A model generated the notes under the pieces. That model saw only the letters and a program-made list of their open reading frames with translations, searched no databases and was not told the DNA's origin. Below are positions 2,498 through 28,686 of a DNA stretch of 64,000 nucleotides, in pieces. Origin of the DNA: Thermoplasmatota archaeon (lineage in GTDB: Archaea; Thermoplasmatota; JAKEGO01); the NCBI GenBank assembly GCA_028279595.1, contig JANQNK010000002.1:1970-65969 (forward strand). The letters run 5' to 3'. Each line of letters opens with the position of its first letter. Positions within the stretch are counted from its first letter, which is position 1. A program made the position numbers and the translations under genes.

Positions 2498-2511
2498 CGT
2501 CGGATTTCAAT

Positions 2512-2574
2512 GTTTACTGTAAGAAACGTTCCGCATTGAGTAATGGCACTGGTAAAACCGTGATGAAATTCCTC
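2512..2574 (+). repeat. Copy A of the island repeat family: 19-nt core GTTTACTGTAAGAAACGTT, then GAAATTCCTC 34 nt later
   Basis: The 19-mer at 2512-2530 is identical to 13744-13762. GAAATTCCTC at 2565-2574 matches 13799-13808 at similar spacing. It lies just after the stop of the beta-helix gene. Confidence 0.8.
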
Positions 2575-2631
2575 GCACCATCTTCAGAAAAAGTCTTATC
2601 AGTATCATTACCATCTCGTCAGGGTGACCAT

Positions 2632-3726
2632 ATGAGAGACAGGATCAGACGTATCTTCGAAAGGATTGAGGGCCTCGATACGATCGTCATAAAGAATCAC
2701 ACTACCCCTCATCTCGACAACTCGTTCTTCTATGTTACCGGACTGAAGAGTGGTCTGTTCAATCAATCTATGGCACTGATAGACCGCGAAGGCGGACTCG
2801 AGGTGATCACGACCGTTCTGGTGGAGGACACCGTCCGGGATTCGAAAATTCCGGTGACCTCGTATGAGCAGTCCGTGGACCTCGAAAGAATCGTCACAGA
2901 ACGTCTCACCGATTCTCGGCGGATCGGTTTCAATTCCTCTGAGTTGATATCCGAGGACTATCTGATGTTCAACAGGCTCCTAAAGGATACTGAGCTGGTC
3001 GATGTATCTGATCAGATGAATAAAGCTCGTGCAATCAAGGACAGCACGGAGATCGAGACTATTAGGAAGGCATGCGGTATCGTATCACGAGTGGCGGACA
3101 GGATCCCTGAGTTCATCGACAGTGACACCACCGAACACGATGTCGCGTCCTTCATCCCGACCTCCATGTTGGATGGTGGTGCCGATGGTCCAGCTTTCGA
3201 TACGAACTGTTCCTTCGGTCCGAACAGCGCACTTCCGCACTATCACACTGGTAACGTTCGTATCAAGCCCGGAGACTTCATCTTGACGGATTTCGGCGCC
3301 GAGGCGGACCGTTATGTGTCCGACATCACGAGGACATGGTTCTACGGAAGTGTAAACGAGGAGCAGAGACGCATCTACGATGCTGTATTGGAAGCACAAC
3401 GGAATGCAATCGATATGATAGAACCGGGTATCGCTGCCTCCGATGTCCATCGAACCGTGAACAAGGTCATCGACGACGCTGGCTATCACGGTAAGTTCAC
3501 TCACAGCACTGGCCATGGGATCGGTTTGAACGTTCACGACGCAGCATTGAGGGTACGTGAAGAATCCGACTTCCTCCTGGAAGAAGGGATGGTCTTCACC
3601 GTCGAACCAGGGATTTACGTCGTGGGATTCGGCGGGGTCAGGGTCGAGGACGACATCGTTGTGACAAGTGACGGGTGTGAGGAGCTGACAAATGCCGATA
3701 AAGAGCTTTCAGCAATCGATATTTGA
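2632..3726 (+). CDS. M24B family Xaa-Pro aminopeptidase / prolidase
   Basis: C-terminal pita-bread motifs: DFGAEADRYVSDITRT, HSTGHGIGLNVHD, FTVEPGIY, GVRVEDD. I prefer ATG 2632 because the TTG-2536 extension overlaps repeat copy A. Confidence 0.85.
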   Translation: MRDRIRRIFERIEGLDTIVIKNHTTPHLDNSFFYVTGLKSGLFNQSMALIDREGGLEVITTVLVEDTVRDSKIPVTSYEQSVDLERIVTERLTDSRRIGFNSSELISEDYLMFNRLLKDTELVDVSDQMNKARAIKDSTEIETIRKACGIVSRVADRIPEFIDSDTTEHDVASFIPTSMLDGGADGPAFDTNCSFGPNSALPHYHTGNVRIKPGDFILTDFGAEADRYVSDITRTWFYGSVNEEQRRIYDAVLEAQRNAIDMIEPGIAASDVHRTVNKVIDDAGYHGKFTHSTGHGIGLNVHDAALRVREESDFLLEEGMVFTVEPGIYVVGFGGVRVEDDIVVTSDGCEELTNADKELSAIDI

Positions 3727-3732
3727 TTGGGA

Positions 3733-4023
3733 TCAAAGAAAGGTCCTTTTCATAACGGCGATTAACGGGAGACAGGCTATCGTCACTGTTCCAAACAATA
3801 AGACAGACGCACCGTCGTTCATGAGCTGGGCATTGCGTGAATTCTGGATCTCGCCGTTCGTGGTCCCGTTATCAAGCGGATTTGCTAGACATTCTTCGCG
3901 CTCATTATTCTCGGTTGTTGCCGATCTGGGTTCATCGATTGATGTGGTCTCTACGGCAGAGGCTGGTTGTAGAGCCGATGCGATCAATATCCAAACCAGC
4001 AGTGTTATGGATAAGGCACCCAT
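3733..4023 (-). CDS. Small hypothetical secreted/membrane protein
   Basis: N-terminal signal-like segment MGALSITLLVWILIASALQPASA and C-terminal hydrophobic segment VLLFGTVTIACLPLIAV. No recognisable family. Confidence 0.4.
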   Translation of the reverse strand: MGALSITLLVWILIASALQPASAVETTSIDEPRSATTENNEREECLANPLDNGTTNGEIQNSRNAQLMNDGASVLLFGTVTIACLPLIAVMKRTFL

Positions 4024-4305
4024 GTATCATTAAATCAACTCCATCTTCGTTTCGGGTCATTGTAGATGATGCTCGCCGGAATAACATTTATTTAGATTGG
4101 TATAAGGTTGGATATAACCCCTGAATATTAGGATAAGGTTGAATATATCTCGTAATTGATCTGGCGCTTTCCATTTTTTAGTACCCAGTGTAGATGGATC
4201 TGGATATTAATTTGTTGGGTCGGGTTCATCTAGATCATCGTCGAGATAAGCTGGAATTCCGTCGTCATCCAATCCTAAGATGTAGAGAACTCATTACTTT
4301 ATTAC

Positions 4306-6675
4306 TCAATTCACGGGCGGAATACTCGGCTCACCGACAACTGGCTGCTCGGCTGTCTCTCCCGAATCAAGCGCTTCCAGAAACATCTGAGTCGGCGTGA
4401 TCCCATCCTTCCTTGATGCGTTGACGATGTTCCTGTTCCTGAGTCGCTTAATGTGATATGACATGGTGGACTGCGACAGACCGACAAGCTTTGCCAGGTG
4501 CCCCTGGGAGATTCCCGGAGACAGAAGCACCACCTTCATTATCTCGGTCTCGATACCGATTAGCTCGAACCGTGGAATGCGCTTCCCGAAGGGATAGAAA
4601 CGCTTGTAGAACCCGTCGTTATTGCTACGGATGAAACCCTCGGTCTCGAGGACACGCAGATGATATCCAGTAGACCCATTCGGAAGGTGGAGCTCCTTCC
4701 TGATCATGGTGTAGTGGGCTCCAGGATTCTGCCTTATGAACTCGATTATGCGACCCCGGACCTTGTGGTCAGCGACGTCCTCACTCCGCAATCTAGTGTA
4801 TATCGGAAAGACAAGGGAGAAGAGCGTGTAGAATCCGATCCCGGTCGCAGCGAAGACGCCGACGGCAATTAATGCAGCCACACCGATTATCACTGTCGTT
4901 TCCTCTGGTAGTCGCGAGTCATCACCATCCTTCCGCGGTCTATTGACGGAATCGGGGGATGCTACGTAGAGGATGATCGTCTCGGTCTCGGAATTGTGGT
5001 ATCCGTCCCAGGACCTCACTGTTACTGTCAATGCGCCCAGAGGGAAGGAGGAGTGGTTCAGCGTGAAGCCCCACTCGGTTGTACCTATCACTGTGGTCCA
5101 CACGTTCCCTGCGATCGATACCTCGACCATCGAGACATCCCCGTCCGTGTCCGATGCGGTACCCAGTATTATGATGGACGAGTTGACAGTCATGTTGTTA
5201 ACAGGGTATTCTATCGTCACAATGGGCCTGATGTTCACAAGGACCGATCCATTGACCACCTCGCTTGAAAGATCCTGATCGTCCATCACATAGAAGGTGA
5301 TGTTGTGGACCCCATGTGAGAGGGAGTCTGTCGTGAACAGGGTTGGGGTACCATTGTACAGCTCGCCATCGATGCTGGATGTCCAAACGAACTGGGTCAC
5401 TGTGCTATCTCCAGAGTGACCAAGTCCATGGAATTCAACGAATTCATTATGAGCAGCAGGGTCTGGATTGATGGAAATGATCGAAGCATTGGGTGGTTTA
5501 GGTTGGGGTGAGGGGGAGTAGACGAGGGGGTACCTATCGGACGAATTCCCTCCGGCGATCGGATAGGGATCATCGACTATCCCGTCCCTGTCCGTATCGC
5601 CTGTGGAACCGTCGGACCAGTAATTACCCTCAACCCCACTGTCCCAATTGTTGCCGGAGCAGTTATCGTATCCCTGTGTGGTGTTTAGATTGTTGTCAAA
5701 GAACCTGTTGTTGTGTACAGTATTGTTCTCACATGATAATTTTCGATCCAACTCGATGATGGAAACGCCGTATCCACCATTCGAAGTGAATGTGTTGTGA
5801 GTGATCCTGTTCCAATGGGATCCGAAGTTCATCTGGATGCCATCACCATCGTTATCGGTCAGATCAGACTTGGTGATGGTTATGTTCATGGACATCGATA
5901 TGTTGATCCCAGCCTCGCCGTTCGATGATACGGATCCCCTGTTCAGGGATACGTATTCCGAGTCGACGAGGAGGATCCCATCAACTCCGGAATTCGAGAC
6001 CTCGGTGTCGAGAATCTGAATATCATTGCATTCCACTAGTGTGATACCGGAATTGAAGGCGTCAACGACAGTAACCTCCTGGACGGTCAGTTCTGAGAGG
6101 TAGCCGGCGATACCCCACCCATAGAACGTGCACCTGTGCACATCTACTAATGTCGATTCCTCAATAGACAGAGTTGTTCCAAAAGGGTTGGTGGAGATGA
6201 ACGTGTTGTCTTTGAACTGCATCACATCAACGTTCATGATGTTCAACCAACTCCATTCAACATTGAAAATGCAGTCAGTGATGCTCACGTTCCTACAGTC
6301 GATGATATGTGGATTGCCCGCAAAAGGCGGCATGGATATACCGGAAATTGCGACATCGTTAGCTGATATCAAGAACTGGAAAACGCCATCGTTGTTGTCA
6401 AGAATGACCTCTTTGCTGCCGTTACCCTCAATCACGATCGATTGGTTTATCCATATACCTTCTGAATAGTTACCAGCGTAGACCAGGACAGTATCGCCTG
6501 GGTTGGAAGCGTTCATCGCATCCCTTATGGTGGTGTGGTCGGCCCACTGGCCCCCGTCGTCGTCGACGACTATGACCCTGGATGAACCCGGACCTGAAAG
6601 TATAATGATGAGAACGATCGAAATGAACAATGATGCGATCAGGCTCGTCCGAATCGACCTCGATACTAGGTTCAT
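4306..6675 (-). CDS. Membrane-spanning protein: extracellular beta-helix (NosD-like) plus Ig-like domains, one TM helix, two cytoplasmic winged-helix DNA-binding domains
   Basis: Signal anchor LIASLFISIVLIIILSG. Module start VIVVDDDGGQWADHTTIRDAMNASNPGDTVLVYAGNY. Module end GNYWSDGSTGDTDRDGIVDDPYPI..DRYPL. TM segment IIGVAALIAVGVFAATGIGFYTLFSLVF. Then IIEFIRQNPGAHYTMIRKELHLPNGSTGYHLRVLETEGFI and GISQGHLAKLVGLSQSTMSYHIKRLRNRNIV (ArsR-like wHTH). Confidence 0.8.
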   Translation of the reverse strand: MNLVSRSIRTSLIASLFISIVLIIILSGPGSSRVIVVDDDGGQWADHTTIRDAMNASNPGDTVLVYAGNYSEGIWINQSIVIEGNGSKEVILDNNDGVFQFLISANDVAISGISMPPFAGNPHIIDCRNVSITDCIFNVEWSWLNIMNVDVMQFKDNTFISTNPFGTTLSIEESTLVDVHRCTFYGWGIAGYLSELTVQEVTVVDAFNSGITLVECNDIQILDTEVSNSGVDGILLVDSEYVSLNRGSVSSNGEAGINISMSMNITITKSDLTDNDGDGIQMNFGSHWNRITHNTFTSNGGYGVSIIELDRKLSCENNTVHNNRFFDNNLNTTQGYDNCSGNNWDSGVEGNYWSDGSTGDTDRDGIVDDPYPIAGGNSSDRYPLVYSPSPQPKPPNASIISINPDPAAHNEFVEFHGLGHSGDSTVTQFVWTSSIDGELYNGTPTLFTTDSLSHGVHNITFYVMDDQDLSSEVVNGSVLVNIRPIVTIEYPVNNMTVNSSIIILGTASDTDGDVSMVEVSIAGNVWTTVIGTTEWGFTLNHSSFPLGALTVTVRSWDGYHNSETETIILYVASPDSVNRPRKDGDDSRLPEETTVIIGVAALIAVGVFAATGIGFYTLFSLVFPIYTRLRSEDVADHKVRGRIIEFIRQNPGAHYTMIRKELHLPNGSTGYHLRVLETEGFIRSNNDGFYKRFYPFGKRIPRFELIGIETEIMKVVLLSPGISQGHLAKLVGLSQSTMSYHIKRLRNRNIVNASRKDGITPTQMFLEALDSGETAEQPVVGEPSIPPVN

Positions 6676-6852
6676 CTTTATTCACCGGTTATCGTCCTGA
6701 TTTTCTTATACACTCTTGAATTATGAGTGTTTTGTTGGTTTTACAGATGACAGTCGCATTAAGATCCGCCGCATCTGATCGGTCTTCAGGACACCATATG
6801 TCTGTGGATCGTGTCATGATCACTACCCGTTCCGTTCATTAATAGGGGGGAC

Positions 6853-6886
6853 GGGATGGTCCCCGAGGGGGTTTAGAGACCATCCC
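6853..6886. repeat. Inverted repeat (9-bp arms GGGATGGTC/GACCATCCC, 16-nt spacer) downstream of the 776-aa gene
   Basis: Read directly from the sequence, 26 nt past the stop at 6912 on the minus strand. No T-run follows, so a terminator role is unproven. Confidence 0.4.
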
Positions 6887-6911
6887 TTCGATCACTTTCA
6901 TAACGGCACTA

Positions 6912-9242: not shown

Positions 9243-9647
9243 CTCAGCACCTCATACATAGGCTCATAAGAGTGCGTCGCGAGGAGGTTATTATAATATA
9301 TTGGGACAAACTTCGATATAATTCGACCATTATAGGACGAGGTTCGATATTATCGAGTAACAGGATAATATGTCTATATCATTCGGTATACTAGAAACCT
9401 GACCTGGTCCATAAATTATCTATATTCCGATATATCTTTTCAGTAGAGGCTTTGCACTACAAGATCTTCCGGTCATCATCATGGATGGATCTCTGAGTAC
9501 ACCGATAACTTTACAATTATCATTACGATTAATTCAACATCGTATTGATAAAAATCACTACTTTTTTCGTTATAAAATGAGATCATTTAATTTTGATAAT
9601 CTTGACTCGATGATAGTACTCAAGGAACGCTATCAAGAAGTGTACCG

Positions 9648-9790
9648 ATGATAGAGATTTGTGTATTTCAGATGAATGTGAACGGCATGGATCGAGCTCT
9701 TGAATTCTACCGTAAGGTACTAGGTTTCGAGAAAGATGATGATACACATTATCCCCAGATCGTTGGCTTGAATTGTCTTCTTCTACCGCA
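9648..9790 (+). pseudogene. Probable remnant of a VOC/glyoxalase-family gene (N-terminal fragment only)
   Basis: FQMNVNGMDRALEFYRKVLGFEKDDD resembles the first beta-alpha-beta unit of VOC proteins. The rest of the 71-aa ORF looks non-protein-like. Confidence 0.3.
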
Positions 9791-10122
9791 CTTTCCAATC
9801 TCTCTCCGATATGTGTATCAATCGAGTATAGGCTTTAGGCACGTCGGACAATCTTCCATTTAAGAGGGGCTTAAGTCAGCCCCAGCAACCTTGAAGAAGA
9901 TAAAATTGGCAAAGTTGTGAGATGCCTATGTCGAGGAATCGAATATGCCACTGGTGAATTGAGAAGTATATCGAAACTTGTCCCAATAAAGTGGTGCTAA
10001 TACGACACTCGTCCCAATACATACTTAAGTTGTCACTTGGAGGAACTTTAAATGAAAAGCGAGGTGTGAACATGAGAAGATTATCGATGCATTTTGCATT
10101 CCTGATCCACTGTTACGTCGCA

Positions 10123-10971: not shown

Positions 10972-11370
10972 TATGCTATGAAACTCAGGACGATGATTAG
11001 GAATTGATTCCCGCATAATGTCCTATTACAATTCGAGTATTGAAGTTGGAAGAGTGGTAGGGAGAACTTCTTGCGATCCCTCTACGTTCAGGCTCATTTA
11101 AACTAGAATTTTCACCTAGTATAGCTCGTTGAGATATCTGTCGGTTCCAGTCCGTTTCATTTTTCTTTTCACATTCATCACTTAAATTCCCCTTATCAAG
11201 CAAACATGATCATTATAGATCCACCGACTCCCATCAATATTCATATCATTCAATTCTCCTGGGCTCCAATATGGTCCTAGGAAATTCAAGGAATGAGGGT
11301 ATCATAACTAGATTGACCGGATTATTTTTTTCTACAGAATGTAAAATCTGCAGAAATTCTGTATGAATAT

Positions 11371-11962: not shown

Positions 11963-12357
11963 AATATAATTAAGAGAAACACTGATATTAATTTATTGTG
12001 GGTAAGAAGGCGAAATCCAAACACACTGTTTGGGGGATTCGGTGGGACCATATCAGTGCCAACCAGTATTCCAACTTAGCTAGGCGATGCCCGAATCCCC
12101 CGTTGTGTCTTCTCGAGAGAGTATGTCGAGGGGTGATCTCGCGCATTCGGTGTTGCGGAAGTCCTCGAACTCTCTCGATTGGAACCACAATCGTGAAATC
12201 ATATTTATTCATTATAGTAAAGACCGGACAAATCGTGGATGATTAGATAAATTTGGATGGACACTCAATTGTAATAGTAAATGAGAATATGATATTTCAG
12301 GGATTCATCCATTAAAATATTATATTATTACCGACATTATCCGTCGGTGGTCATAAC

Positions 12358-13743: not shown

Positions 13744-13808
13744 GTTTACTGTAAGAAACGTTGGTACATAATTGTAATATTACCGTTACAACCGGGGGGA
13801 AATTCCTC
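13744..13808 (+). repeat. Copy B of the island repeat family
   Basis: 19-mer identical to 2512-2530. Its interior aligns with 18254-18290 (AATTGTAATaTTACCG). GAAATTCCTC at 13799-13808. Abuts the stop of the 1374-aa gene. Confidence 0.8.
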
Positions 13809-13812
13809 AACC

Positions 13813-16800
13813 TCATGTTCTTCGTCGGGAATTCCAAAGAATGGCGGTAATAACAATAAAGATTGTCGGGAGAATCGCGATTTCAGGGATCTTTTCGGGA
13901 GAACTCGTTTCGACTGGATCTTCGTGAGGATATCTGTCCTCAGCATTGCCGGGACCGTCTATGGAGTATGTACCCGAACCGCTCCAATCGGACCAATAAT
14001 TCCCCTCGGTGATACCATCATCCCATTCATTGTGTGATGTATTGTCGTAAGCTTGGGACGATGCACCAGTATTGTTCGCGAAGTTATTATGGTGAACCTT
14101 CATTTGTGTTGACCCTGAAGAGTATATTCCATAATTGCCATTCCCGAATATCTCATTGAAGATAATGGTAATATTGTCAGAGGAGCTAATGAATAATCCG
14201 TAATCATCGTTGTTAGAGCAGGTATTGTTTGCTACATGAATTTTGACAGAGGAATTGTAATGGATACCAATGTAGTTATCAGACACGTTACAATTCTTGA
14301 TTGTATGGCCATATGAACCATTCGAATAAATTCCTTGAACGTTGTCAATTATCGTGCTATTAAAGATAGCGGCACTGTTATTCGTTAAGTTAATTCCTGC
14401 GCGGCTTCCGTTCCGGATCGTGATATGGCTGATATTAACATCTGAACCGGTTATTTCGATAACATTCCCGGTATTATTCCCATCAATGATCGTCTCTTCA
14501 GAACCATTGCCAACAATCGTTATTGATACGGGAATAACCAGGTTCTCTATGAATAATCCTTCATAAACTAATATCGTGTCACCTGCAGTTGCATTATCGA
14601 TTGCATCCTGAATAAATTGGTAATCTGCTCCCCCATCATCATCTACAGTGATGATTGAAGAACTATATATTCCTTCTATCCTAATTGGCCAACTATTACA
14701 GAACGAGAATGGTTGGCTTATTCCATCGTCTATGGTGGCACAGATGTAATGAGTACCATTCGTGACATTTGTTATATCCCATTCAATTGTACCAAATCTA
14801 TCGTTCTCCTCATGGTAACCTATTAGATTATCACCAGATTCTCCATCCGAGTATGTGAATGTGACATTGGCTATACTATCTTTGTCGCTCGCGTAGTATG
14901 AGATAGCTATAGTTTCTGATGCCATACGATTAACTGTCAATTGGTCGATATTTGGAATGAGGATCACATACGGCATATCATTTCCACCAACCTCGATATC
15001 AAGTTCATTTACCAGAGGATATCGATCTTTAGCAGGACTATCTCCATCGATGTGATATTTTTCTTCTCCAATACCATCGTCATCAGTATCCGTACCTGTG
15101 TAATCCGACCAATAGTTGCCACTCGATCCATAATCCCAGTCATTGCTGGAACTGTTCCCACCATCGTCCAATCCTTGTGCAGTTGCGTTGATCGAAATAA
15201 TGTTGTCAATGAAATTATTATGATGTATCATGCATCGAACGGTGAATCTATCCGCGGACACCCCATACCCGTGGTTACGACGCAATTCATTATCATAGAT
15301 TGATATTGTACGAGCCTCATCAAGAACGATACCTTCACCTTGATTATTAATGAATAAGTTATTCTGAATGATGAACCTCTTCGAGTCCATGATATCCAAT
15401 CCTATTGAATTATTGATAAAAGAACAATTCTTGACCATAAGTCCTTCCGAACTATAGCTCCGTAGACCTACTCCGATGTTGTCTGAAATGTTATTGTCAA
15501 TATATGTGTCGTCAACAGCATTTCGTGAGAGAATCGCTTCGTCCCAGTTATTCCTCATGATACAATTAACGAATGAATTCTCGAGAGTGTCCCTCAAGTA
15601 CAGGCTTCTTCTGCTTCCTGAAAGGTTCGAATTTATTACAAGGTTCCGAATACCTGTGTCCATAGAAAATGCATTACTTGAAGCGCTATGGATTTCACAT
15701 CCTGAGATTGTATTATTATCACCGTCGTTCATTGTCAATCCAACACTACTTGGATTATCTATCGTACAGTTGAATAGTGTCGAATTATCAACTCCTATCA
15801 TGTATACTGATCGCGCGGATACATTAACAAAATAGACGTTGGACGATTGAAACAGTCGGATATTCGCGGGTACTTCTACTTTCTTGGAGCTCTCAAAGAT
15901 AACGTTGTTGCAGTGAGCCATCATTATGTGCGGGCTTGCATTGAATTGCGCTCCATCGTAGGAGAAATAGGAGCAATTGACAACGATTATCTGTCCTACG
16001 TCGTTTGGTATTATAAATTCACTACTATTTAATTTGAAAAAAACCTGTTTTCCATTGACTGTATTATTAAAGATAAAGTGGGTTGTGAAGTGTTCGATAT
16101 CAGAACCCCAGAATTGTATGGAATCGTTCACGAGGGTACAATCAGTGACACGGGATCCCGTTGCAGAATTTATTAGGATTCCGCCACCAATTCCACTGTC
16201 GGAAACCGTACAGTTGACTATAGATGTTCTCTGACCCATAACACCGATCCCGGTCCCCGATGTAAAAGTAATATTACTATTGGTAATTGTTGTATTATCG
16301 CTTTTCGACCTGATTCCGGACAGGCAATGTTCAATCAGACAATTGTCAATGTAGGCCTCATTGGAGTCATCAAGCCTGATCGCATAATCCTCTATCTTTG
16401 AGAAAGTGCAATTGTCTACCTTCGTATCCGTGCAGTGTTCGAAGGTCAATCCCATTGGTAATTGGTCGAAACTTGATGATGATATAGTTACGTTATCTGA
16501 ATATACAACCTTCAATGTCTCGGTATAATTGAAGACACAATCATTGATATTTACATTTGAGCTACCTACGATGATAATTTGAGACACATCTGATTCGATT
16601 GAATATGATGACTCATTCTTGATGAAGATGATCGGTTTACCGTTAAGGGTGCAATTGGTAATCACATGTGAGTTATAATGTTGTACCTCGTTCCCTTTAA
16701 TCGAAATGAACTCATCGATAAACCTGCATCGCTCGATGCTAATTCCTATCTTATTGTATATTTCGAACCGTCCATGGAAATAATCGTTATACGTCCATTC

Positions 16801-17937
16801 GGAGGACTTGATCTTACAACCGATTACACTTGTACGATCACCAAAATGTCGAATGGCTTTGGAATTGTTTGAGATAACACACCTCTTAATTAAGATGTCA
16901 GGGACATCCCTAAGCCAAATCCCTTCCTCCGAATTTGAGAATATGTTGGAGCTGTATATTGACGAATATTGAGAATCACCTCTAAATTGAAACCCATTTT
17001 CATTCTGACTCAAGGTGCAATTATTGAATGTGTTATTCCATCCATCCCATACGGATATTCCAGACTCGGTATTATTGATTATTTGAGCTTCAGTGACATT
17101 GACGTTGTCACTCCCCCATACGTCAATCCCAACCCCATCATTATTGACGATAGTGCAACCGCGTACTACAACCCCGTCCGATCCCCTAAGGAATAGCGTT
17201 TCTGCTCCAATGATAGAATGACTAGATTTTGTGTTTCTAAGGGTTGAATTTTCAATTATGCAACTGTCAGTTCCCCAAACACCCCAAACATATATCGCAT
17301 TGTCTGTACAATTATCTATCACGCATGAATCAATCGTAGCATTGGCTGAAGTGATCATGATTCCAATACCGCTAATATCTTTAATCTGAGAGGCCCGAAT
17401 GTTGGTGTATTGACCGTTGATGCTGATACCAGCACTACAATTAGTGACAACAGAATCAGAGATCGTGTTGTGCGTGCGAGTGTTATTAATTCGAATTCCT
17501 TGTGTACTATTGAAGATACGACAGTCCTCAATTAGGTTTCCATGTGATGCAATCCTTAGGCCGCGATTAGTCTTGGAACCAGTGATCCCAAAAAATGAAA
17601 TAGAACAATTACTAGCAGAAATCAGGAGACCATCACCATCGCCACCACTTCTAATAATCGATTCAGTCGTACCATTTCCAATTAGGAGAACACGTTTGTA
17701 AACATCGATCTCATCGATAGAGTCATCGGGAGAATAATTTCCCGCGAAAACGCGGATTGTATCACCGATCACTGCGTTTTGAATCCCATCTTGAATTGTC
17801 CCATACGGATTATCTTCTGCCCCGGTGGCAGACATGTTTCCCTCATTATCATCATCAACGTAAATTGTCGCACCTTGAGTATTGATCCCTATCAATACTA
17901 ATGCTAGAATCGCTAATGCAAAGATGGTCCCTTTCAT
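13813..17937 (-). CDS. Giant (1374 aa) two-module parallel beta-helix (NosD-like) surface protein with signal peptide and C-terminal TM anchor
   Basis: MKGTIFALAILALVLIGINTQGA signal. Module starts TIYVDDDNEG..GTIQDGIQNAVIGDTIRVFAGNY and IITVDDDGGADYQFIQDAIDNATAGDTILVYEGLF. Module ends GNYWSDYTGTDTDDDGIGEEKYHI..DRYPL and GNYWSDWSGSGTYSIDG..DRYPH. C-terminal ILPTIFIVITAILW. Confidence 0.85.
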   Translation of the reverse strand: MKGTIFALAILALVLIGINTQGATIYVDDDNEGNMSATGAEDNPYGTIQDGIQNAVIGDTIRVFAGNYSPDDSIDEIDVYKRVLLIGNGTTESIIRSGGDGDGLLISASNCSISFFGITGSKTNRGLRIASHGNLIEDCRIFNSTQGIRINNTRTHNTISDSVVTNCSAGISINGQYTNIRASQIKDISGIGIMITSANATIDSCVIDNCTDNAIYVWGVWGTDSCIIENSTLRNTKSSHSIIGAETLFLRGSDGVVVRGCTIVNNDGVGIDVWGSDNVNVTEAQIINNTESGISVWDGWNNTFNNCTLSQNENGFQFRGDSQYSSIYSSNIFSNSEEGIWLRDVPDILIKRCVISNNSKAIRHFGDRTSVIGCKIKSSEWTYNDYFHGRFEIYNKIGISIERCRFIDEFISIKGNEVQHYNSHVITNCTLNGKPIIFIKNESSYSIESDVSQIIIVGSSNVNINDCVFNYTETLKVVYSDNVTISSSSFDQLPMGLTFEHCTDTKVDNCTFSKIEDYAIRLDDSNEAYIDNCLIEHCLSGIRSKSDNTTITNSNITFTSGTGIGVMGQRTSIVNCTVSDSGIGGGILINSATGSRVTDCTLVNDSIQFWGSDIEHFTTHFIFNNTVNGKQVFFKLNSSEFIIPNDVGQIIVVNCSYFSYDGAQFNASPHIMMAHCNNVIFESSKKVEVPANIRLFQSSNVYFVNVSARSVYMIGVDNSTLFNCTIDNPSSVGLTMNDGDNNTISGCEIHSASSNAFSMDTGIRNLVINSNLSGSRRSLYLRDTLENSFVNCIMRNNWDEAILSRNAVDDTYIDNNISDNIGVGLRSYSSEGLMVKNCSFINNSIGLDIMDSKRFIIQNNLFINNQGEGIVLDEARTISIYDNELRRNHGYGVSADRFTVRCMIHHNNFIDNIISINATAQGLDDGGNSSSNDWDYGSSGNYWSDYTGTDTDDDGIGEEKYHIDGDSPAKDRYPLVNELDIEVGGNDMPYVILIPNIDQLTVNRMASETIAISYYASDKDSIANVTFTYSDGESGDNLIGYHEENDRFGTIEWDITNVTNGTHYICATIDDGISQPFSFCNSWPIRIEGIYSSSIITVDDDGGADYQFIQDAIDNATAGDTILVYEGLFIENLVIPVSITIVGNGSEETIIDGNNTGNVIEITGSDVNISHITIRNGSRAGINLTNNSAAIFNSTIIDNVQGIYSNGSYGHTIKNCNVSDNYIGIHYNSSVKIHVANNTCSNNDDYGLFISSSDNITIIFNEIFGNGNYGIYSSGSTQMKVHHNNFANNTGASSQAYDNTSHNEWDDGITEGNYWSDWSGSGTYSIDGPGNAEDRYPHEDPVETSSPEKIPEIAILPTIFIVITAILWNSRRRT

Positions 17938-18147
17938 ACTATCGATAATTTGTTGTAGTTATCAGTATAAGGTAATATTGGAACGAGTCTTTATAGAGCT
18001 CCATCAACAGTTCTTGTTACTCCAATTGGCAATGTGTCCTCAAGCGGGCCATTTATGAGGTTTCAGAAGGATGTGTGAGATGGTAATCTCTACACCGAAC
18101 CCAAAGGTATCCATCAATATTAATCCCGGTAATTTCACATTTTTAAT

Positions 18148-18157
18148 TTACCGGTAA
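18148..18157. promoter_or_regulatory. Palindrome TTACCGGTAA upstream of the giant beta-helix gene; second, longer copy TTTTACCGGTAAAA at 18272-18285
   Basis: Both copies read directly. A half-site CCGGTAA is at 18126-18132. All lie in the intergenic region upstream of the start at 17937. Confidence 0.35.
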
Positions 18158-18242
18158 TTCGGTGCCATAATCCCTCTCGCCGCACTAACATTTCTTTGAA
18201 GAACTCGTATTCAATCGACCACTGTGTTTACGTTGATGATTT

Positions 18243-18328
18243 CTGTAAGAAACACTGATACGGAATTGTAATTTTACCGGTAAAATCACGCCAATTTCCC
18301 CCCCTTCTCGTAGGATCGTTTCTTACAG
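18243..18328. repeat. 86-bp unit bounded by 11-bp inverted copies of the family core (CTGTAAGAAAC ... GTTTCTTACAG)
   Basis: Arms at 18243-18253 and 18318-18328. Interior carries TTTTACCGGTAAAA and a C7 run. The left part aligns with copy B. Confidence 0.75.
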
Positions 18329-18409
18329 CAAACGTGCATTGGAATCTTACAATATCATAATATTCTTAAATTCCAAAATTGATGTATCGGAAAATAATCT
18401 TAATAGGCA

Positions 18410-19729
18410 CTAGTAGTTATTAACAATCCACTGTTTTAGAAGTTGTTGTTTTTGTCCAATTTTCCCTTTTGCAATCTCGATATTTATATCATTGGGTAAG
18501 GTAGATAATATTGGGTGAATTGCTTTTAAATAGGTACTTCCTACGTTGATAAATACATCGGAATAGTCTTTGTTCTGCAGTATCTTGTGAAACTGACCTC
18601 TTATTTGGTCTATAAAGGTTTCAACATTTTCAAGGGACAATTTTTCATCATACGGTGAAATCACCTTCGTTGGTTCAATTAAACCATATTTCGATGAAAT
18701 AATAAATATATCGAATCCATCTCTATTAGAAAATGACCAAAGATGTTTCCTTAAAATTTTAAACATGATCCCATCGTATATTTTAATTGCCTGAGCCTTT
18801 TTCAATGAGGGATGTTTTGTTTTTGAGCATGAAATAATAATCATTTTATTATTGGGGTTCCAATACTGATTCCTTGAAAGGATATTAGCGTTAATATAAT
18901 CTCTAATTTGATAATATCGCTTTTTTTGAGCTGGGACATTTCCACGCTTTGGGGACGATCCTTGATATTGAAAAATCCACCCTTTATAGTCACTTCCAAA
19001 TACAGAGTATCGTCTGAATAAAATATGTCGTTTTGGAGAATAGCAACCAAGCGCGAAGAGATTAATATTGGGATAGTTATCACGAATTTCTGAGAGTATT
19101 AATCTTAAATTATCCTCATTTCTCACGTTAACGTATCTTACACTATTAACTCTTTTTACAAGCATTCCCCCTATTCCGATATATGAATATCCCAATTCAA
19201 TTAATTCTGAGACACAGTCGATATATTCATTCACTGATTTTCCTTGGGCGACTCCAAGTAATTTAAATGAATATGAGTTGTCTTGATATTCTTCGATTGC
19301 TTTTGTTGCACTTATAAGGGTTTGAGTACGATCCTTTATAATATCAATAATTACTCCAAAATCAATTTTCAGCTTTTCGTACTCTTGAAATAAATATGTA
19401 TAATCTAAATTTGAATATCCTTCTTTCGTAAAAACTGCAGAGTCGCAAATTGTGAATATTTTCCTTTGAAATTCTAGTCCTGCCCGACATTGATTAATAT
19501 CAATTTTATAAGGACATGGATTATCTTCAATGATGCTACACCGTTGTGGATTGACACATGGGAAAACTTTGAATGCTTCTTTAAAATTCTTATGAGTATT
19601 TACATGTGTCATTAATCCAATATGTTTGTTCTCTGGTATCTTAATTCCACTGATTATTCTTAAGGATGCTTGTCTATCTGCAACTAAGTAAGGAGTGAAT
19701 TTTTTTACATTGAGATTTGGATTAGTCAT
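18410..19729 (-). CDS. TGT/DpdA-like transglycosylase TIM-barrel domain fused to a C-terminal SCSxxK...PYD (DUF6884-like) domain
   Basis: TGT-fold landmarks in the right order: ICDSAVF (cf. DSGGFQ), LLGVAQGKS (cf. GIVQGG), YIGIGGMLV (cf. GYAIGGL), LFALGCYSP...VFGSDYKGW (cf. LLGVG.P...DMFDCV). C-terminus has IIISCSKTKH...IKIYDG..F...IFIISSKYGLIEP...ISPYDEKL. Met3 at 19729 gives an ATGA overlap with the upstream stop; ATG 19735 is also possible. Confidence 0.7.
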   Translation of the reverse strand: MTNPNLNVKKFTPYLVADRQASLRIISGIKIPENKHIGLMTHVNTHKNFKEAFKVFPCVNPQRCSIIEDNPCPYKIDINQCRAGLEFQRKIFTICDSAVFTKEGYSNLDYTYLFQEYEKLKIDFGVIIDIIKDRTQTLISATKAIEEYQDNSYSFKLLGVAQGKSVNEYIDCVSELIELGYSYIGIGGMLVKRVNSVRYVNVRNEDNLRLILSEIRDNYPNINLFALGCYSPKRHILFRRYSVFGSDYKGWIFQYQGSSPKRGNVPAQKKRYYQIRDYINANILSRNQYWNPNNKMIIISCSKTKHPSLKKAQAIKIYDGIMFKILRKHLWSFSNRDGFDIFIISSKYGLIEPTKVISPYDEKLSLENVETFIDQIRGQFHKILQNKDYSDVFINVGSTYLKAIHPILSTLPNDINIEIAKGKIGQKQQLLKQWIVNNY

Positions 19730-20730
19730 AGGCAATCATCTGAAGGAAAATCAAATATAAATGTTTGTCCACAACCTTGAGAATTGTCACGATAACGAGA
19801 GGGTAAACAGTAACCTATTTGAATATTATCGTTCTTTCTGACTAGTCTATATATCGATAAGATATCTGGTTTTGGTCCAATTGGACTAAACACTAAATTG
19901 TAATTATCAATGGAAATATTTTCCTCGTCAGCAAATACATCGAGAATACTCTTAAATTCGTTATGAAATTGCCATGGGTGAAAGCCACTTATTTCTTTTG
20001 ATGTAACAAATTGATTCGCTAATAAGTCTTTATTATTTCGGTAGACAATGTCTTTTTGATCACTCCAATTTGGAATGCTCGTTACGGGAATTAATGCTAA
20101 GGTTCGATATGGTTTATAATTTCGAAAAATTGACATCGCTCGATTTCCTTGGAAACCAAGGTATATTAACAAGATAGAATCGCGGTGCCTGACCTTTCCA
20201 TGAAATGTAGGTACAGAAAATATCTTATGGGTTCCCATGACAAAATCATTTTCAGCAGAGCTATATTCTCCAACCATTGAATATGTAAAAATGGTTTTAT
20301 CTAGATCTATAATATCCAATGTTATTAATGCACAATATTTAGGAATACAAGATAAATCAACGATTAAAGGATATGAGAATGAGCATTCATGAATAACTTG
20401 ACGAAATTTATGATACTGATACAAGTTTAATGAAATTATTGAAAATTCGATTCCAAATGAATTCAATAATTGTTGTATTAACCTCTTATTTTGTTGGTAT
20501 TTTCTAATTGTCTCCTTGTCTTTCACATCAAGTGAAGAGATATTTAGTAATGATTGCTGATAATTTGTAAAGTCAATTAACCAACATTCCCTGATTTGAT
20601 ATTGAGTAATAATTGTTCTTATCGAGTGATACGACCGGTCCGCAAAACTAATAGCACAAATTAAATCAACCATATCATTTTTATATTTATTACTTTCTTG
20701 AATTAACTGTCTTGATGGAGTTATTCTCAT
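19726..20730 (-). CDS. Hypothetical protein (334 aa), third gene of the operon; alpha/beta Rossmann-like pattern, no motif recognised
   Basis: ORF with ATGA overlap to the upstream SIR2 gene (tcat at 20727-20730). Alternating hydrophobic strands: LICAISF, LIVDLSCIP, ILLIYLGFQGN, TLALIPV, LVFSPIGPKP. Confidence 0.75.
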   Translation of the reverse strand: MRITPSRQLIQESNKYKNDMVDLICAISFADRSYHSIRTIITQYQIRECWLIDFTNYQQSLLNISSLDVKDKETIRKYQQNKRLIQQLLNSFGIEFSIISLNLYQYHKFRQVIHECSFSYPLIVDLSCIPKYCALITLDIIDLDKTIFTYSMVGEYSSAENDFVMGTHKIFSVPTFHGKVRHRDSILLIYLGFQGNRAMSIFRNYKPYRTLALIPVTSIPNWSDQKDIVYRNNKDLLANQFVTSKEISGFHPWQFHNEFKSILDVFADEENISIDNYNLVFSPIGPKPDILSIYRLVRKNDNIQIGYCLPSRYRDNSQGCGQTFIFDFPSDDCL

Positions 20731-23228
20731 TCATCTCCCCAATCAAATTCAAAGTCATCTTTCTCAATAACAAGAAATTCTAACCAGTTTTCAAGAAGTG
20801 ATTTTACAAATGAATCAGTATCATGAAGTATTGTATTGAAATGATCGGCGTTTATCTCTCTAGGATGTCGATTTTGAATGGCTAATGAGAAGTATGGGGT
20901 TAATAATCTATGGAATTTATAATTCCGATAAGGTGTTTTTTCTCTTGCATGAAGATTTCGTGGAAATAATGGTTCTTGCAACAGCTGTACTTCGAGAGCT
21001 TGTCTTAAATAATCCTCAAGTTCATCTTCGATAGGTGAACTCATAGTATTGATGCAAATTTGTGAGGTTCGTCTGATTAAGTCTTTTTCTTTAACATAGT
21101 TGAAATCATCATTTGCCATTCGTTTTTTATATCGGTTAACGCCAGCTGTTTGGATCCCTTTGAATAACTCACCTAATGCATCAATTAATCTTCTAACGTG
21201 TTCCGGATTTTCGATATCTTCATTTGATTGCATATAATGAAGAACGGACTTGATTTTCACAACATGATTTTGGGCATTACAAGGAATCGGATTGAGTTCC
21301 ACTTTTTTTTGACTGATATCTGGAAAAGCATAGTACAGCGTGTCTTTGACAAGCGAAACAAAATCTCGAACGATCCCAGAGGATAAATATGCATAATTTC
21401 GAAATCCAGAATAATCCATTCCAATACTTAAGGGTTCTTCAATTGATTCATAATTTTTACTTGGAAGTAACACCTCAATGTTATTAATGTTGAATTCCTC
21501 TTCATCTAAACGTCTATTGGCTACATTTTTTAAAAACGATATGTATTTTTCTCTATCTTTAATCGTGAATCTATCTAAACTTACCGGATAATAATCGTGA
21601 TATTTCCGGAGAATTTTATTATTTGTATCATGATAACACATTGACCCACTTTTAACTCCAATTTTATAATTGAGGTGGAAGTTATATTGTAACGGGGCAT
21701 TTCGGCTTCTTAGTGTTGTATTAATTACTCTCTGTTGATCAGTTGATAAATTATCAAACTCATCGAGAAGAATATACACGTTTTGAAATTGTAATATGTT
21801 ATGAAGTTTCTTTAACGAGTGAAGAAGTACAAGTGGACCAGTTAACGTTAAATGATCATATTGGCCGGTAGTACACAAATCCATCTCTGAATATAAAAGG
21901 TCACAGAGACTATCTAATGAATTAACATTCTCTAAATGAAAAATCTTACCGATTGAGTGTGCTATTTCGTTTGAATTGTCGAATGACAACTCGTCTTCCA
22001 TAAGTTCACAAATATGAGTCATTAAAAATAAATTAAAATAATGTTGGAAAAACCTTGCCCATTTAATATCGTCCTCGAACTCTTTTTCAGTGGCATAGAA
22101 AGCTTCTGGTAAACATTTTATGTAAAATGCCAGATTCTCATCACTCTGATTAAGTATTATTGATAAATAACGAAGAAGCCATGACTTGCCTGAACCCCTA
22201 TGCCCTTCGATAATCGTATTGCTTCCTGGTTCTACCATTCGAATATAGTCCGTAGGCGGAATAAAATATTTCTTGATAATATCCTCTTCACCTTTTCGAA
22301 CAATTTCAGAACTAATGTATTTGAAAGGATTTTTATCTTTCGTGAAACTAGATTCTTTTCTTTCTATAGAGGAATTCGACATTGAAAAACGTTGATACAT
22401 AATTTGTAAATTCTGAATGAAGTGGTTTGCATCTGAATGAACGAATTTAAATCCATACTGTTGAACTAAATCATCCGCCTCTAGCTCTGAATCATCAGAA
22501 ATTAGATAATTCGTCTTTCCATTGTGTTCACTATGAATCTCCTTATAAACTATTCGAAAGTTAATGTCTTGAGCACTATAACCGATTAAAACAAGTATTT
22601 TCTCTCTAAAAAGTACCCTCAATTTGTCCTTAAATGCTTTATTATTTGATTGATTCATCCATTGCTCAAAATCATCTTTCGTTATGACAATTGAAGATGG
22701 TTCGATTGTATCACCATGAATTTTATAGATATTAATAGATGGATTAGGAGGTTGATGCATTTGGTCTTCCTTGTAATATAATTGGTACTCTGAAGAATCG
22801 GTATATGATTTTTCTAGCAAATGATCATAATTTGTTGTTATAAAGTCACACGGAGGCAACTCAGTAATCATTTTATGTAATATACTAGTATTTTCTTCTT
22901 CCACACTTTCAATTATGTGGGCAATTTTAATCTTTAATTCCTCATCAGTATAATTGTTTTTGTATAGTTCAATTATCTCTTGAGGATCCCCGCCATTTTC
23001 CAGAATTTGTCGAGGTTCTGCAAGGATAGGTTTTTTTTCCAATTCTTCGGCGAGTATATTCGCTAACTCTCTCAAATCGGGTAATCCAGCACTGGTACTT
23101 ACTCCAGCACCCAGAATGATGACATAATTTTTATTAGTCATAGCCTGAAGTAATGGAGAAATGTCCATATTCGAATTAATGGCTTTTTCGACTCGTTCTT
23201 TCACCACGGCACCACTATCTTTGGTCAT
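20727..23228 (-). CDS. SIR2-like (SIR2_2 type) domain fused to a P-loop NTPase
   Basis: N-terminus: VIILGAGVSTSAGLPDLRELA, FITTNYDHLLE, IYKIHGD. Middle: Walker A IEGHRGSGKSWLL and Walker B VYILLDEFDNLS. GGTGA lies 5 nt upstream of the ATG. Confidence 0.85.
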   Translation of the reverse strand: MTKDSGAVVKERVEKAINSNMDISPLLQAMTNKNYVIILGAGVSTSAGLPDLRELANILAEELEKKPILAEPRQILENGGDPQEIIELYKNNYTDEELKIKIAHIIESVEEENTSILHKMITELPPCDFITTNYDHLLEKSYTDSSEYQLYYKEDQMHQPPNPSINIYKIHGDTIEPSSIVITKDDFEQWMNQSNNKAFKDKLRVLFREKILVLIGYSAQDINFRIVYKEIHSEHNGKTNYLISDDSELEADDLVQQYGFKFVHSDANHFIQNLQIMYQRFSMSNSSIERKESSFTKDKNPFKYISSEIVRKGEEDIIKKYFIPPTDYIRMVEPGSNTIIEGHRGSGKSWLLRYLSIILNQSDENLAFYIKCLPEAFYATEKEFEDDIKWARFFQHYFNLFLMTHICELMEDELSFDNSNEIAHSIGKIFHLENVNSLDSLCDLLYSEMDLCTTGQYDHLTLTGPLVLLHSLKKLHNILQFQNVYILLDEFDNLSTDQQRVINTTLRSRNAPLQYNFHLNYKIGVKSGSMCYHDTNNKILRKYHDYYPVSLDRFTIKDREKYISFLKNVANRRLDEEEFNINNIEVLLPSKNYESIEEPLSIGMDYSGFRNYAYLSSGIVRDFVSLVKDTLYYAFPDISQKKVELNPIPCNAQNHVVKIKSVLHYMQSNEDIENPEHVRRLIDALGELFKGIQTAGVNRYKKRMANDDFNYVKEKDLIRRTSQICINTMSSPIEDELEDYLRQALEVQLLQEPLFPRNLHAREKTPYRNYKFHRLLTPYFSLAIQNRHPREINADHFNTILHDTDSFVKSLLENWLEFLVIEKDDFEFDWGDE

Positions 23229-23247
23229 GAATTCACCAGGACTAAGT

Positions 23248-24204
23248 TTATTTTTCGTAAATTGCCAAAACGTTCATATCAGGTTCAGATTTCATTGTGC
23301 CAATTATCCGGATTCCATGTTTATATCCACGTTTAATAAAATTGTAGGCAAATACTCCAGTATCGTAATCACCATTCGGACAAACGTGTAAATGTAATGT
23401 GTCTCCCGAATTCGTTAAAGGTACACGATAATCAATCCATGAAATTCGGCCATTTTCTGATGCAGAATTTTCTACCACTCGAATAGCGTCATCCTCGTTG
23501 AAATGATCGTTAAACCATTGCCAATATTCTTTCCTCTTCTTTCGTACTGAGGCAGTCATATTTCCGGACTCATAGGTTGGAGGTTTACACCGGTGATCAG
23601 ACGAAAGCAATTTATCATAAAGGAGCTCAATTTTCCCATTTTCAAACTCACAAGCGGTAGGTATTAATTTTGTCTCAGGAACATCATTTGTTTTCGATTC
23701 CGATTGACTTGGTAAATTTAAAAACACCAATGACCTTGGAACTGAAATTATACTATTTGGATCTCTCCATTGTTTCTCATCTGTGCCGTTTTCGACGATG
23801 AATAATCTTTCAGGATAGCTTGATAAATAATGTAATGATAAATTTATCAACTGACGATATGGGTTATTTACTGGTTGAAGTCGCACATTATATCCAGATT
23901 TTGCGGTTGTTCCTTCACCTACTTCTTTACCTTTCTCAGCTGAGATGCTTGGTTTAATGAATGTGAATATTCCGCTCAACAGGCTCCCGATTTCAGTTGT
24001 CGTTACAGAGCTGGAAAGATTTAATTTTTTTCGTATTTGTTTAACATTGGATTCGGATAACTGAAACTCATAAAACTCCTGATCAAAATCAGGTCTTACG
24101 ATGGCATCGTAGAAATTACTGATTTGAGGCTTATCAATAAAACATGGTGCGTCAGCCATCCAACCCAGAGAGAGTATCTTATTATTGATGAGATCCTTCT
24201 TCAT
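23248..24204 (-). CDS. Hypothetical protein (about 318 aa), first gene of the operon
   Basis: Long ORF. I prefer ATG 24204 (MKKDLINN), which is preceded by AGGGGGA and an AT-rich TATA-like stretch. The ORF-track start at 24243 is a TTG. No family recognised. Confidence 0.7.
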   Translation of the reverse strand: MKKDLINNKILSLGWMADAPCFIDKPQISNFYDAIVRPDFDQEFYEFQLSESNVKQIRKKLNLSSSVTTTEIGSLLSGIFTFIKPSISAEKGKEVGEGTTAKSGYNVRLQPVNNPYRQLINLSLHYLSSYPERLFIVENGTDEKQWRDPNSIISVPRSLVFLNLPSQSESKTNDVPETKLIPTACEFENGKIELLYDKLLSSDHRCKPPTYESGNMTASVRKKRKEYWQWFNDHFNEDDAIRVVENSASENGRISWIDYRVPLTNSGDTLHLHVCPNGDYDTGVFAYNFIKRGYKHGIRIIGTMKSEPDMNVLAIYEK

Positions 24205-24386
24205 TTCATCAATCCCCCTATGTAACCCATATATATGTATCAATTATAAATATTCCTTAGTGCTACGAGTATATATACAATCAATATCCGAATAATATTC
24301 ATCGCTATTATTCTTGGAGAGATATCTTTTTATTTTTTCTTAGTCTGCTTTGCGTAATCATTCGAGATATACAAATTTACTAGATA

Positions 24387-24395
24387 CCCCCCCCC
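24387..24395. repeat. C9 homopolymer in the divergent promoter region
   Basis: tagataCCCCCCCCCatattt read directly. It sits between a TTTACTAG half-site (24376-24383) and the 18-bp palindrome. Confidence 0.9.
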
Positions 24396-24413
24396 ATATT
24401 TACTAGTAAATAT
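24396..24413. promoter_or_regulatory. Perfect 18-bp palindrome ATATTTACTAGTAAATAT between the operon and wHTH paralog 2
   Basis: It equals its own reverse complement. The 12-bp core TTTACTAGTAAA recurs at 28674-28685, upstream of the regulator-integrase genes. Confidence 0.45.
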
Positions 24414-24436
24414 GTGACAGAATCTCTTCTTGAACT

Positions 24437-24457
24437 AACGTTTCTTGGAAGTAACAG
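24437..24457 (-). repeat. Diverged copy D of the island repeat core, in reverse orientation
   Basis: The reverse complement reads CTGTTACTTCCAAGAAACGTT. It shares TTACT and the exact 10-mer AAGAAACGTT with the 19-nt core. Confidence 0.5.
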
Positions 24458-28685: not shown

Positions 28686-28686
28686 A

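Follow-up and report, generated by a model that had tools for sequence, protein, structure and literature searches.

Arrays built by tyrosine-recombinase elements that re-use one integration site are known in archaea (PMC6563490), and cis-mobilisable elements (CIMEs) are named in work on arrays of integrative and conjugative elements and integrative and mobilizable elements in Streptococcus (PMC5704250, PMC7563491). Here we describe a comparable organization in a stretch of 64,000 nucleotides from a Thermoplasmatota archaeon (GenBank assembly GCA_028279595.1, contig JANQNK010000002.1, positions 1,970 to 65,969 of the forward strand), the whole of which is referred to below as the window. It contains a family of short repeat units that lie between gene blocks, near a tyrosine integrase gene and its target tRNA-Leu. 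A first-pass annotation had regarded the 19-nt core of this repeat as marking cassette-boundary recombination sites, possibly substrates of the island integrase. This proposal holds in kind, as indicated by a shared junction motif, by compositional seams, and by two indels and one end of homology that fall in or beside units, but the part resembling an attachment (att) site is the central palindrome and not the 19-nt core. With moderate confidence, we interpret the units as diverged attachment-site junction copies of small tRNA-targeting integrative elements, forming seams left by serial integration or capture at tRNA-Leu. The phenomenon would then be of a kind known from archaea and bacteria, a genome scar or gene-capture array, rather than a new mechanism.

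As in the tandem accretion arrays (PMC6563490), an integrase gene stands beside a tRNA gene, tRNA-oriented site copies part foreign blocks of differing composition, and the older blocks are devoid of integrase. Unlike in those arrays, the unit described here is no clean copy of the tRNA 3' end and consists mostly of an element-borne palindrome and a lineage-specific 11-mer; some block differences occur at internal sites rather than at the tRNA-proximal site; and one genome contains the arrays twice, each time at a different tRNA-Leu gene. CIMEs, for their part, are integrase-less modules between att sites, and the blocks seen here resemble them because they no longer carry integrases. By analogy, the att-type sites on both sides of such recombinase-less blocks could putatively be used in trans by the integrase of a neighbour, although the host here is an archaeon without conjugation genes and its sites show more decay.

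The window has a low guanine-plus-cytosine (GC) content between positions 1 and 27000 (0.31-0.52, against about 0.58 for the genome). Next to this region stand the following features, where ORF181 denotes the open reading frame (ORF) of a 181-aa protein.

27143-28635, minus strand: integrase module, encoding an Xer-like tyrosine integrase (27143..28126) and the 181-aa protein (28090..28635)
28673-28685, minus strand: palindrome ATTTACTAGTAAA of the tRNA-proximal junction, immediately past the 3' end of tRNA-Leu(caa) and ahead of the ORF181-integrase operon; 35.3 bits, the best site in the genome
28687-28774, minus strand: tRNA-Leu(caa), the integration target

The integrase matches the Pfam family Phage_integrase (E 2e-28), and its best NCBIfam match is XerA-like, at 165 bits, below the cut-off of 220 bits. 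A second copy of the module is located on another contig (C1:10130-11622) beside tRNA-Leu(gag), with amino-acid identities of 91% for the integrase and 93% for the 181-aa protein, so that a tyrosine recombinase gene adjoins the target tRNA both in the window and on C1. The island on C1 is paralogous to that of the window; its 1399-aa beta-helix surface protein is 79% identical to the 1374-aa protein of the window, for which an exact-protein look-up returned no other assembly. A classical att site, sought as a direct repeat of at least 12 nt of the tRNA-Leu 3' end, was not found. Just downstream of the integrase gene 3' end, at 26973-27053, at least five tandem 12-nt units (GCACCCTCCTAG-like) are present, which might be iterons or protein-binding repeats.

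Metagenomes scanned with the island integrase yielded 264 relatives, of which the best 80 loci (56-65% identity; L013-L092) were taken. In about 50 of these 80, the 3' end of a tRNA-Leu or tRNA-Glu gene (...GCACCA) is followed directly by a palindrome, TTTAC-YR-GTAAA (TTTACYRGTAAA), and then by a TATA box, the 181-aa gene and the integrase gene, in this order. The succession of tRNA 3' end, TTTAC-YR-GTAAA, TATA box, 181-aa protein and integrase provides a signature for a widespread family of minimal elements, whose 181-aa protein begins with M-x-KPNKGKTET. Remoter family members in the phylum carry the same palindrome behind other tRNAs (genome loci L104-L132), and a second copy lies about 3.4-4.3 kb from the first in a few loci, at 3.6-4.3 kb in L053, L056 and L068. 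Since the palindrome is present at the junctions of relatives and missing at the unoccupied tRNA-Leu genes of this genome, it is, judging from this comparison, an element-borne hallmark of the attachment junction. Among 401 genomes sampled from the phylum, 30 contain the family, at up to 4 copies each, and it is also present in hundreds of contigs from metagenomes. To our knowledge, no description of this minimal integrative-element family has been published; no literature search was made for one. The short repeats of related islands, compared as analogues, proved heterogeneous and uninformative.

The 19-mer GTTTACTGTAAGAAACGTT is, as reported in the first-pass annotation, identical at 2512-2530 and 13744-13762. 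A third match, with 2 mismatches, lies at 18315-18333 on the minus strand, and the resulting 3 matches at up to 3 mismatches compare with 0.01 expected by chance. GAAATTCCTC, said to follow after about 35 nt, occurs at 2565-2574 and 13799-13808, that is, 34 and 36 nt past the first two cores. The 11-mer CTGTAAGAAAC is found on the plus strand at 2517, 13749 and 18243 and on the minus strand at 18318, and both of its previously noted copies (forward at 18243-18253, reverse at 18318-18328) are confirmed. Alignment of the surroundings shows that the repeat is a unit of about 70 nt, not 19 nt. It starts with a 16-nt imperfect palindrome, GTTTNCTGTAAGAAAC, which contains the invariant 11-mer, followed by a spacer of about 14 nt, GTAAnATTACCGGTAAAACCG, and GAAATTCC with a C/G run. 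Read on the tRNA strand, a C/G-rich stretch ending in GCAC(S)(R) precedes the family palindrome, an A/T-rich spacer of 14-26 nt and then the 16-nt imperfect palindrome; the centre of the unit is thus GCAC(S)(R) plus TTTAC-YR-GTAAA. The 2.29-Mb genome holds four full copies (c1, c2, the double unit c3, and C1:3213-3284), together with diverged or partial ones at 18145-18205, 24387-24457, C1:3858-3928 and C1:8262-8316. Those of the window are the following.

2511-2580, minus strand: full unit c1, with core GTTTACTGTAAGAAAC at 2512-2527 and GAAATTCCTC at 2565-2574; unit-model score 63.4 bits
13743-13812, minus strand: full unit c2, with core at 13744-13759 and palindrome-like ATTACCGTTACAA at 13779-13791; 69.2 bits
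18145-18205, minus strand: partial unit GCACCG-AATTACCGGTAAAT-TAAAAATG, with a junction-like motif and an A/T-rich, TATA-like stretch
18237-18334, minus strand: head-to-head double unit c3, with forward core at 18238-18253, palindrome TTTTACCGGTAAAA at 18272-18285, a C7 run, and inverted core at 18318-18333
24387-24457, plus strand: diverged unit, with a C9 run at 24387-24395, ATTTACTAGTAAA at 24398-24410 and core-like GTTTCTTGGAAGTAAC at 24440-24455

Seven of the eight units are oriented in the tRNA sense, which is the minus strand in the window, and only 24387-24457 is inverted. A search of the whole genome by nhmmer and a sequence-only covariance model, of the sort that had been suggested earlier, recovered the three window sites, the reverse half-copy 18334-18271, C1:3213-3284 and the partial C1:3884-3928, and nothing else. 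All units are in or beside the two paralogous low-GC islands, each with its Xer-like tyrosine integrase beside a tRNA-Leu, and are not scattered over the genome. Three further copies had been proposed in the window. The reverse copy at 24437-24457 has no model score of its own (E 1.3) but belongs to the genuine reverse unit 24387-24457 (C-run, ATTTACTAGTAAAT, spacer, GTTTCTTGGAAGTAAC). The weaker relative TAAGAGAAACACTGATA at 11970-11986 (E 7.4) shares one 11-mer, about what chance would give by our own estimate, and the one at 57358-57384 was recovered by no model search and is likewise estimated at chance level; neither was retained. The sole other exact genomic CTGTAAGAAAC, at C19:189505, lacks the rest of the unit and lies in another low-GC island (C19:188500-198000, GC 0.30-0.43); it is probably due to chance.

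Outside this genome, the 70-nt unit was not found in 60 relatives searched with the covariance model, in JGI metagenomes or in the 80 integrase-related metagenome loci, and the GTDB species genomes (596 Gb) gave one chance match, in Pedobacter, and nothing else. These searches characterize the unit as lineage-specific, in a lineage that is sparsely sampled: one further genome is available in the family and one in the order, both without the unit and the integrase. A literature string search for the 11-mer returned primers only.

The distribution bears on another proposal of the first-pass annotation, that the copies are MITE-like (miniature inverted-repeat transposable element). The units would then be copies or fragments of a non-autonomous element, with the 86-96-bp unit 18238-18333 as the intact form. 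Indeed, c3 has terminal inverted repeats of 15-23 nt and a hairpin fold (z -2.1), and the copies are intergenic with discrete edges. On the other hand, c3 is the only copy with both inverted ends, no target-site duplications are visible on direct reading, the orientation relative to the tRNA is uniform, the genome contains no transposase with matching ends, and no copy was found outside the two islands or in the 596 Gb of genomes and the metagenome set. A MITE-like origin is therefore not retained, and we consider it very unlikely.

The 11-mer is 100% identical across 5 copies, whereas the 24 flanking nt show only 47% pairwise identity, which indicates that it is under constraint. Its geometry, CGTTTN-CTGTAA-GAAACG with an invariant asymmetric centre, would fit a recombinase site with a matching overlap and also an operator near a transcription start. 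A micro-ORF of 9-11 codons, M(F/I)(T/P/S)VRN..., which in three copies (2510-2539, 18236-18271, C1:3212-3247) opens with an ATG 1 nt ahead of the core, was judged coincidental because its variation falls at first codon positions and c2 has no start codon. The dyad-symmetric GTTYC...GAAAC motifs, the nearby G-run and the occasional inverted pairs are also reminiscent of archaeal origin recognition boxes (ORB and mini-ORB). Under such a view, the units would bind an Orc1/Cdc6-type protein where replication of an integrated plasmid starts, and the superficial likeness of the GTTTC-N6-GAAAC dyad with its G-run, the inverted copies in c3 and the ORC-CDC6-like domain protein of the adjacent operon could be quoted in its support. 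However, archaeal ORB/mini-ORB elements have conserved TTCC and GAA core motifs next to an orc1/cdc6 gene, TTCC being perfectly conserved (PMC1904270), and the corresponding position here, the fifth base of GTTTN, takes all four bases, with TTCC only in the C1 copy. Furthermore, the ORC-CDC6-like protein is fused to SIR2 and is read as a defence-type protein, not a replication initiator; no initiator gene and no clustered array beside one are present, and the context is different. We regard a replication role as extremely improbable.

Some features of the units recall integron cassettes: the sites are short, lie directly past gene 3' ends (some overlapping the stop codon) and share one orientation, with an Xer-like tyrosine recombinase nearby. 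The attC core-site consensus is RYYYAAC ... GTTRRRY. In contrast to integrons, no RYYYAAC/GTTRRRY core sites and no conserved single-strand hairpin are found here, and the platform is a tRNA, not attI. An attC identity was rejected, since the unit ends AAGAAAC/GTTTCTT do not fit the consensus and c3 alone folds better than shuffled sequence; the integrase, likewise, was rejected as an integron integrase (58 bits against a cut-off of 265 bits for TIGR02249; 34 against 435 for PRK15417).

Comparison with the relatives reveals that the unit centre matches the family palindrome: as TTTTACCGGTAAAA in c3, as TTACCGGTCAAA in C1:3213-3284, and in decayed form in c1 (minus strand CACGG-TTTTACCAGT, region 2545-2562; junction profile E 0.08) and c2. 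This palindrome is preceded on the tRNA strand by GCAC(S)(R), at the same spacing as the GCACCA of the tRNA. A position matrix derived from 43 distinct foreign junctions only was used to scan the whole genome at a threshold of at least 6 bits. It gave 17 matches, with the two tRNA-proximal junctions on top, followed by 18146 (17.9 bits), 24391/24398 (12.9 and 12.0), C1:3248 (10.6) and 18272 (8.7). With the proximal sites set aside, the islands hold 6 matches of at least 8.5 bits against 0.33 expected, and none of 500 local-composition shuffles reached 6.

In a restricted nhmmer search with the junction profile, the copies share one register at E values from 5e-4 to 0.017, and significance is reached at 18146, 24387, c3 and C1:3213-3284 for the palindrome combined with a correctly spaced GCAC. 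The partial unit 18145-18205, the third best site in the genome by the foreign-junction matrix (17.9 bits), has a junction-profile E of 7e-4 and a unit-model E of 0.055. The corresponding values are 65.5 + 28.4 bits (unit model), 8.7 bits (matrix) and E 1.4e-3 (junction profile) for c3, whose hairpin has a z of -2.1, and 12.9 and 12.0 bits (matrix) and E 5e-4 (junction profile) for 24387-24457. Direct pairwise alignment of the units with the tRNA-proximal region is marginal, with z of about 2-3; the clear result came from the foreign-junction matrix.

In c2, the stretch 13792-13812 (minus strand GGTTGAGGAATTTCCCCCCGG) corresponds to a decayed tRNA-Leu 3' half, GGTTGAGGAAT---TTCCCCC aligning against GGTTCA--AATCCCTTCCCCC (P 0.004); c2 is a candidate distal att site. 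In the inverted unit, 24387-24411 forms with 28673-28697 a 25-nt inverted repeat of 80% identity and represents an inverted partial copy of the palindrome and the tRNA-Leu 3' end (G-run). This copy lies 4.27 kb from the true junction, and the pair brackets the integrase module in the manner of terminal inverted repeats.

In the relatives, the TATA box of the ORF181-integrase operon immediately adjoins the palindrome, and this brings forward a different explanation, namely that the units serve as portable promoter/operator modules and play no part in recombination. In that case, the palindrome would be an operator over the B recognition element and TATA box, the 11-mer an operator or initiator near the transcription start, and the adjacent genes would be co-regulated by the 181-aa protein, by Mrr_N winged-helix proteins, by a membrane-tethered helix-turn-helix protein or by a host DNA-binding protein. 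Six of seven units are located 140-270 nt upstream of a same-strand gene, GTAAATTAAAAATG after 18146 is close to the GTAAATTATAAATA of the family, both the palindrome and the core have dyad symmetry, and the perfect conservation of the 11-mer would point to a binding site. Such modules alone leave unexplained the GCAC(S)(R)/tRNA-like stretch at the correct spacing before the palindrome, as well as the indel ends at units; moreover, c1 has no same-strand gene downstream, and several units border on stop codons, with the next start over 200 nt away. As an exclusive alternative we find it weaker and hold it to be unlikely, while as an additional function it can coexist with an att origin, promoters near att sites being normal. 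Because the palindrome of the relatives abuts a TATA box and six of seven units precede a same-strand gene, it is probable that these sequences have a promoter or operator function as well, without conflict with an att role. In this promoter form, the idea of shared transcription signals raised in the first-pass annotation is compatible with our data, given the TATA box next to the same palindrome in relatives. Its terminator form, in which the units would be transcript 3'-end signals common to island genes, could draw on the fact that four units begin 0-25 nt past a stop codon and a fifth (c3) 77 nt past one. Nevertheless, no oligo-T tract is present on the relevant strand within units, and the orientation of c1 to its upstream gene is opposite to that of c2 and C1:3213-3284. 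Folding of both strands of four copies revealed no common RNA fold, only c3 being better than shuffled sequence, and an Rfam scan of the window returned two tRNAs and no match to the repeat. A terminator role thus appears highly improbable.

We then return to the att-junction interpretation and to the position of the units relative to genes. The geometry described earlier is preserved: the 1374-aa beta-helix gene (13813-17937, minus strand) has forward copies on both sides, and c1 starts 15 nt past the stop of the first beta-helix gene (2..2497, plus strand), about 50 nt before the probable M24 peptidase start (ATG 2632). Unit c2 abuts the TGA stop (13813-13815) of the 1374-aa gene, and c3 lies between this gene and the DUF6884 gene (3' end 18410). 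The partial unit 18145-18205 is placed about 210 nt ahead of the start of the beta-helix gene (17937), has C1:8262-8316 as its positional homologue, and its junction-like motif is preceded on the minus strand by a core-like palindrome, ATTTCTTTGAAGAACT, at 18190-18205. The inverted unit 24387-24457 stands about 95 nt upstream of the Mrr_N gene (24550..25224, plus strand). Every unit separates genes that differ in GC content at third codon positions, with a small difference at c2 (0.33 against 0.40).

The two paralogous islands allow a comparison of presence and absence, and block ends were found at or beside units. Inter-island homology extends from the tRNA to the core of c2 and C1:3213-3284 and then stops; the left flanks hold unrelated genes, and no homology is detectable between orf85 and the 217-aa coiled-coil protein that lie downstream of c2 and C1:3213-3284. 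Two gene blocks are confined to a single island each, namely a DUF3795 gene in C1 and a 7.3-kb defence-like block in the window. The DUF3795 gene (C1:3282-3743, minus strand) encodes a Cys-rich protein of 153 aa (Pfam E 1e-11; GC 0.50) and stands between the 1399-aa beta-helix gene and the full unit C1:3213-3284, with the degenerate unit C1:3858-3928 preceding it. In the mechanical ORF list this gene is hidden under a spurious 217-aa ORF with an upstream GTG in the same frame. The window-only block (about 18206-25500) comprises c3, the four-gene SIR2/ORC-CDC6-like/DUF6884 operon, the 24387 unit and the Mrr_N gene. Its left end is the core-like palindrome ATTTCTTTGAAGAACT, and its right end is the following feature.

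25481-25503, no strand: right end of the 7.3-kb window-specific block, TAGGATCGTT plus GTTGTTTGAAGAATCG

TTTGAAGAA has exactly two copies in the window, at the ends of this block (left 18195-18203; right 25481-25503), both inside a core-like palindrome of which C1 has one copy only (GTTTCTTTGAAGAAAT). The 10-mer TAGGATCGTT also has exactly two window copies, one at the right end and the other at 18311-18320, abutting the inverted core of c3. An acidic protein encoded at this place has 137 aa in the window (25401-25814) and 95 aa in C1 (C1:8418-8705); the extra C-terminal part of its ORF crosses the right end of the block, so that the indel has changed where the reading frame ends.

Several observations weigh against an att origin of the units. 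The 19-nt core is the most strongly conserved part, yet it lacks a counterpart both at the tRNA-proximal junction and among the relatives; the likeness to the tRNA 3' half before the palindrome is not significant in any copy but c2; and the junction profile misses c2 and C1:8262-8300 and gives weak matches to c1 and C1:3858-3928. On the left, the 7.3-kb block terminates at a core-like repeat that lies 32 nt beyond c3 rather than within a unit, and its right end is 1.1 kb from the 24387 unit; the pattern for the core-like palindrome was, in addition, set after the junctions had been inspected. In the comparison suggested earlier, the DUF3795 block lies between units and the 7.3-kb block ends beside units; two more breaks of inter-island homology (window 25935 and 26864) have no unit. 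Remnants of integrase or ORF181 pseudogenes, sought in the older blocks, were not found. Finally, since one genome only carries the repeat family, the two paralogous islands are the sole strain comparison, and the sole one for breakpoints at the repeats, among relatives that included the 60 genomes, GTDB and the JGI metagenomes.

Following the interpretation of the units as junction copies, integration at such a site, or capture beside it, would leave a copy of the site at the new junction, and repeated events would give rise to an array of gene blocks parted by site copies (tandem accretion). The copies would mark the seams between the adhesin-like gene, the defence-like operon, the DUF3795 gene and their neighbours, and we infer that the island integrase made these joints. 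For the minimal integrase element, the probable distal site is 18145-18165, whose homologue C1:8262-8300 lies 3.4 kb from the tRNA, and c2 and C1:3213-3284 would be the distal end of a larger composite that includes the adhesin-like gene. This would locate the 'missing' second attachment site of the element integrated at tRNA-Leu, and the 27-kb low-GC region could be understood as a stack of separately gained blocks rather than as one island. It is also conceivable, though quite doubtful, that the sites are live: the Xer-like integrase, perhaps with the 181-aa protein, would recombine composite sites with CTGTAA-GAAAC as the shared crossover or arm, and the tRNA-Leu loci would act as an integron-like capture platform in an archaeon, having taken the DUF3795 gene, the giant adhesin gene and the four-gene SIR2/ORC-like defence operon as integrase-less cassettes. 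Should the internal sites remain in use, they could offer archaea a simple route to capture and exchange defence operons and surface-protein genes as integrase-less cassettes.

Some observations concern the surroundings of the islands. The M24 peptidase beside c1 (2632-3726) has at most 42% identity outside this genome, with no close orthologue in related genomes, and has a paralogue on contig C7. Since it lacks a close orthologue, the 2.6-9.2 kb segment (GC about 0.51) seems to be accessory DNA as well; its synteny was examined for an empty c1 site, and the gene itself proved accessory. A partial duplicate of pstA-pstB-phoU, with 84% nucleotide identity, is present at two contig ends (C1:1-2167 and C2:31017-33183), and the pstA of C1, immediately adjacent to the C1 island, is 5'-truncated and joined to unrelated sequence.

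Other tRNA genes of the genome show specific arrangements at their 3' ends. Behind each of the unoccupied tRNA-Leu genes C7:96751-96838, C14:86890-86976 and C14:117647-117733 stands a hairpin with a distal arm that repeats the tRNA's own 3' end in inverted orientation, for instance GCACCATTCC...GGAATGGTGC. Furthermore, tRNA-Ser(gct) (C19:33525-33611) is followed by CACGCCA-TTTATCAGTAATC, a palindrome-like sequence that resembles the family junction and may be a relic of a related element.

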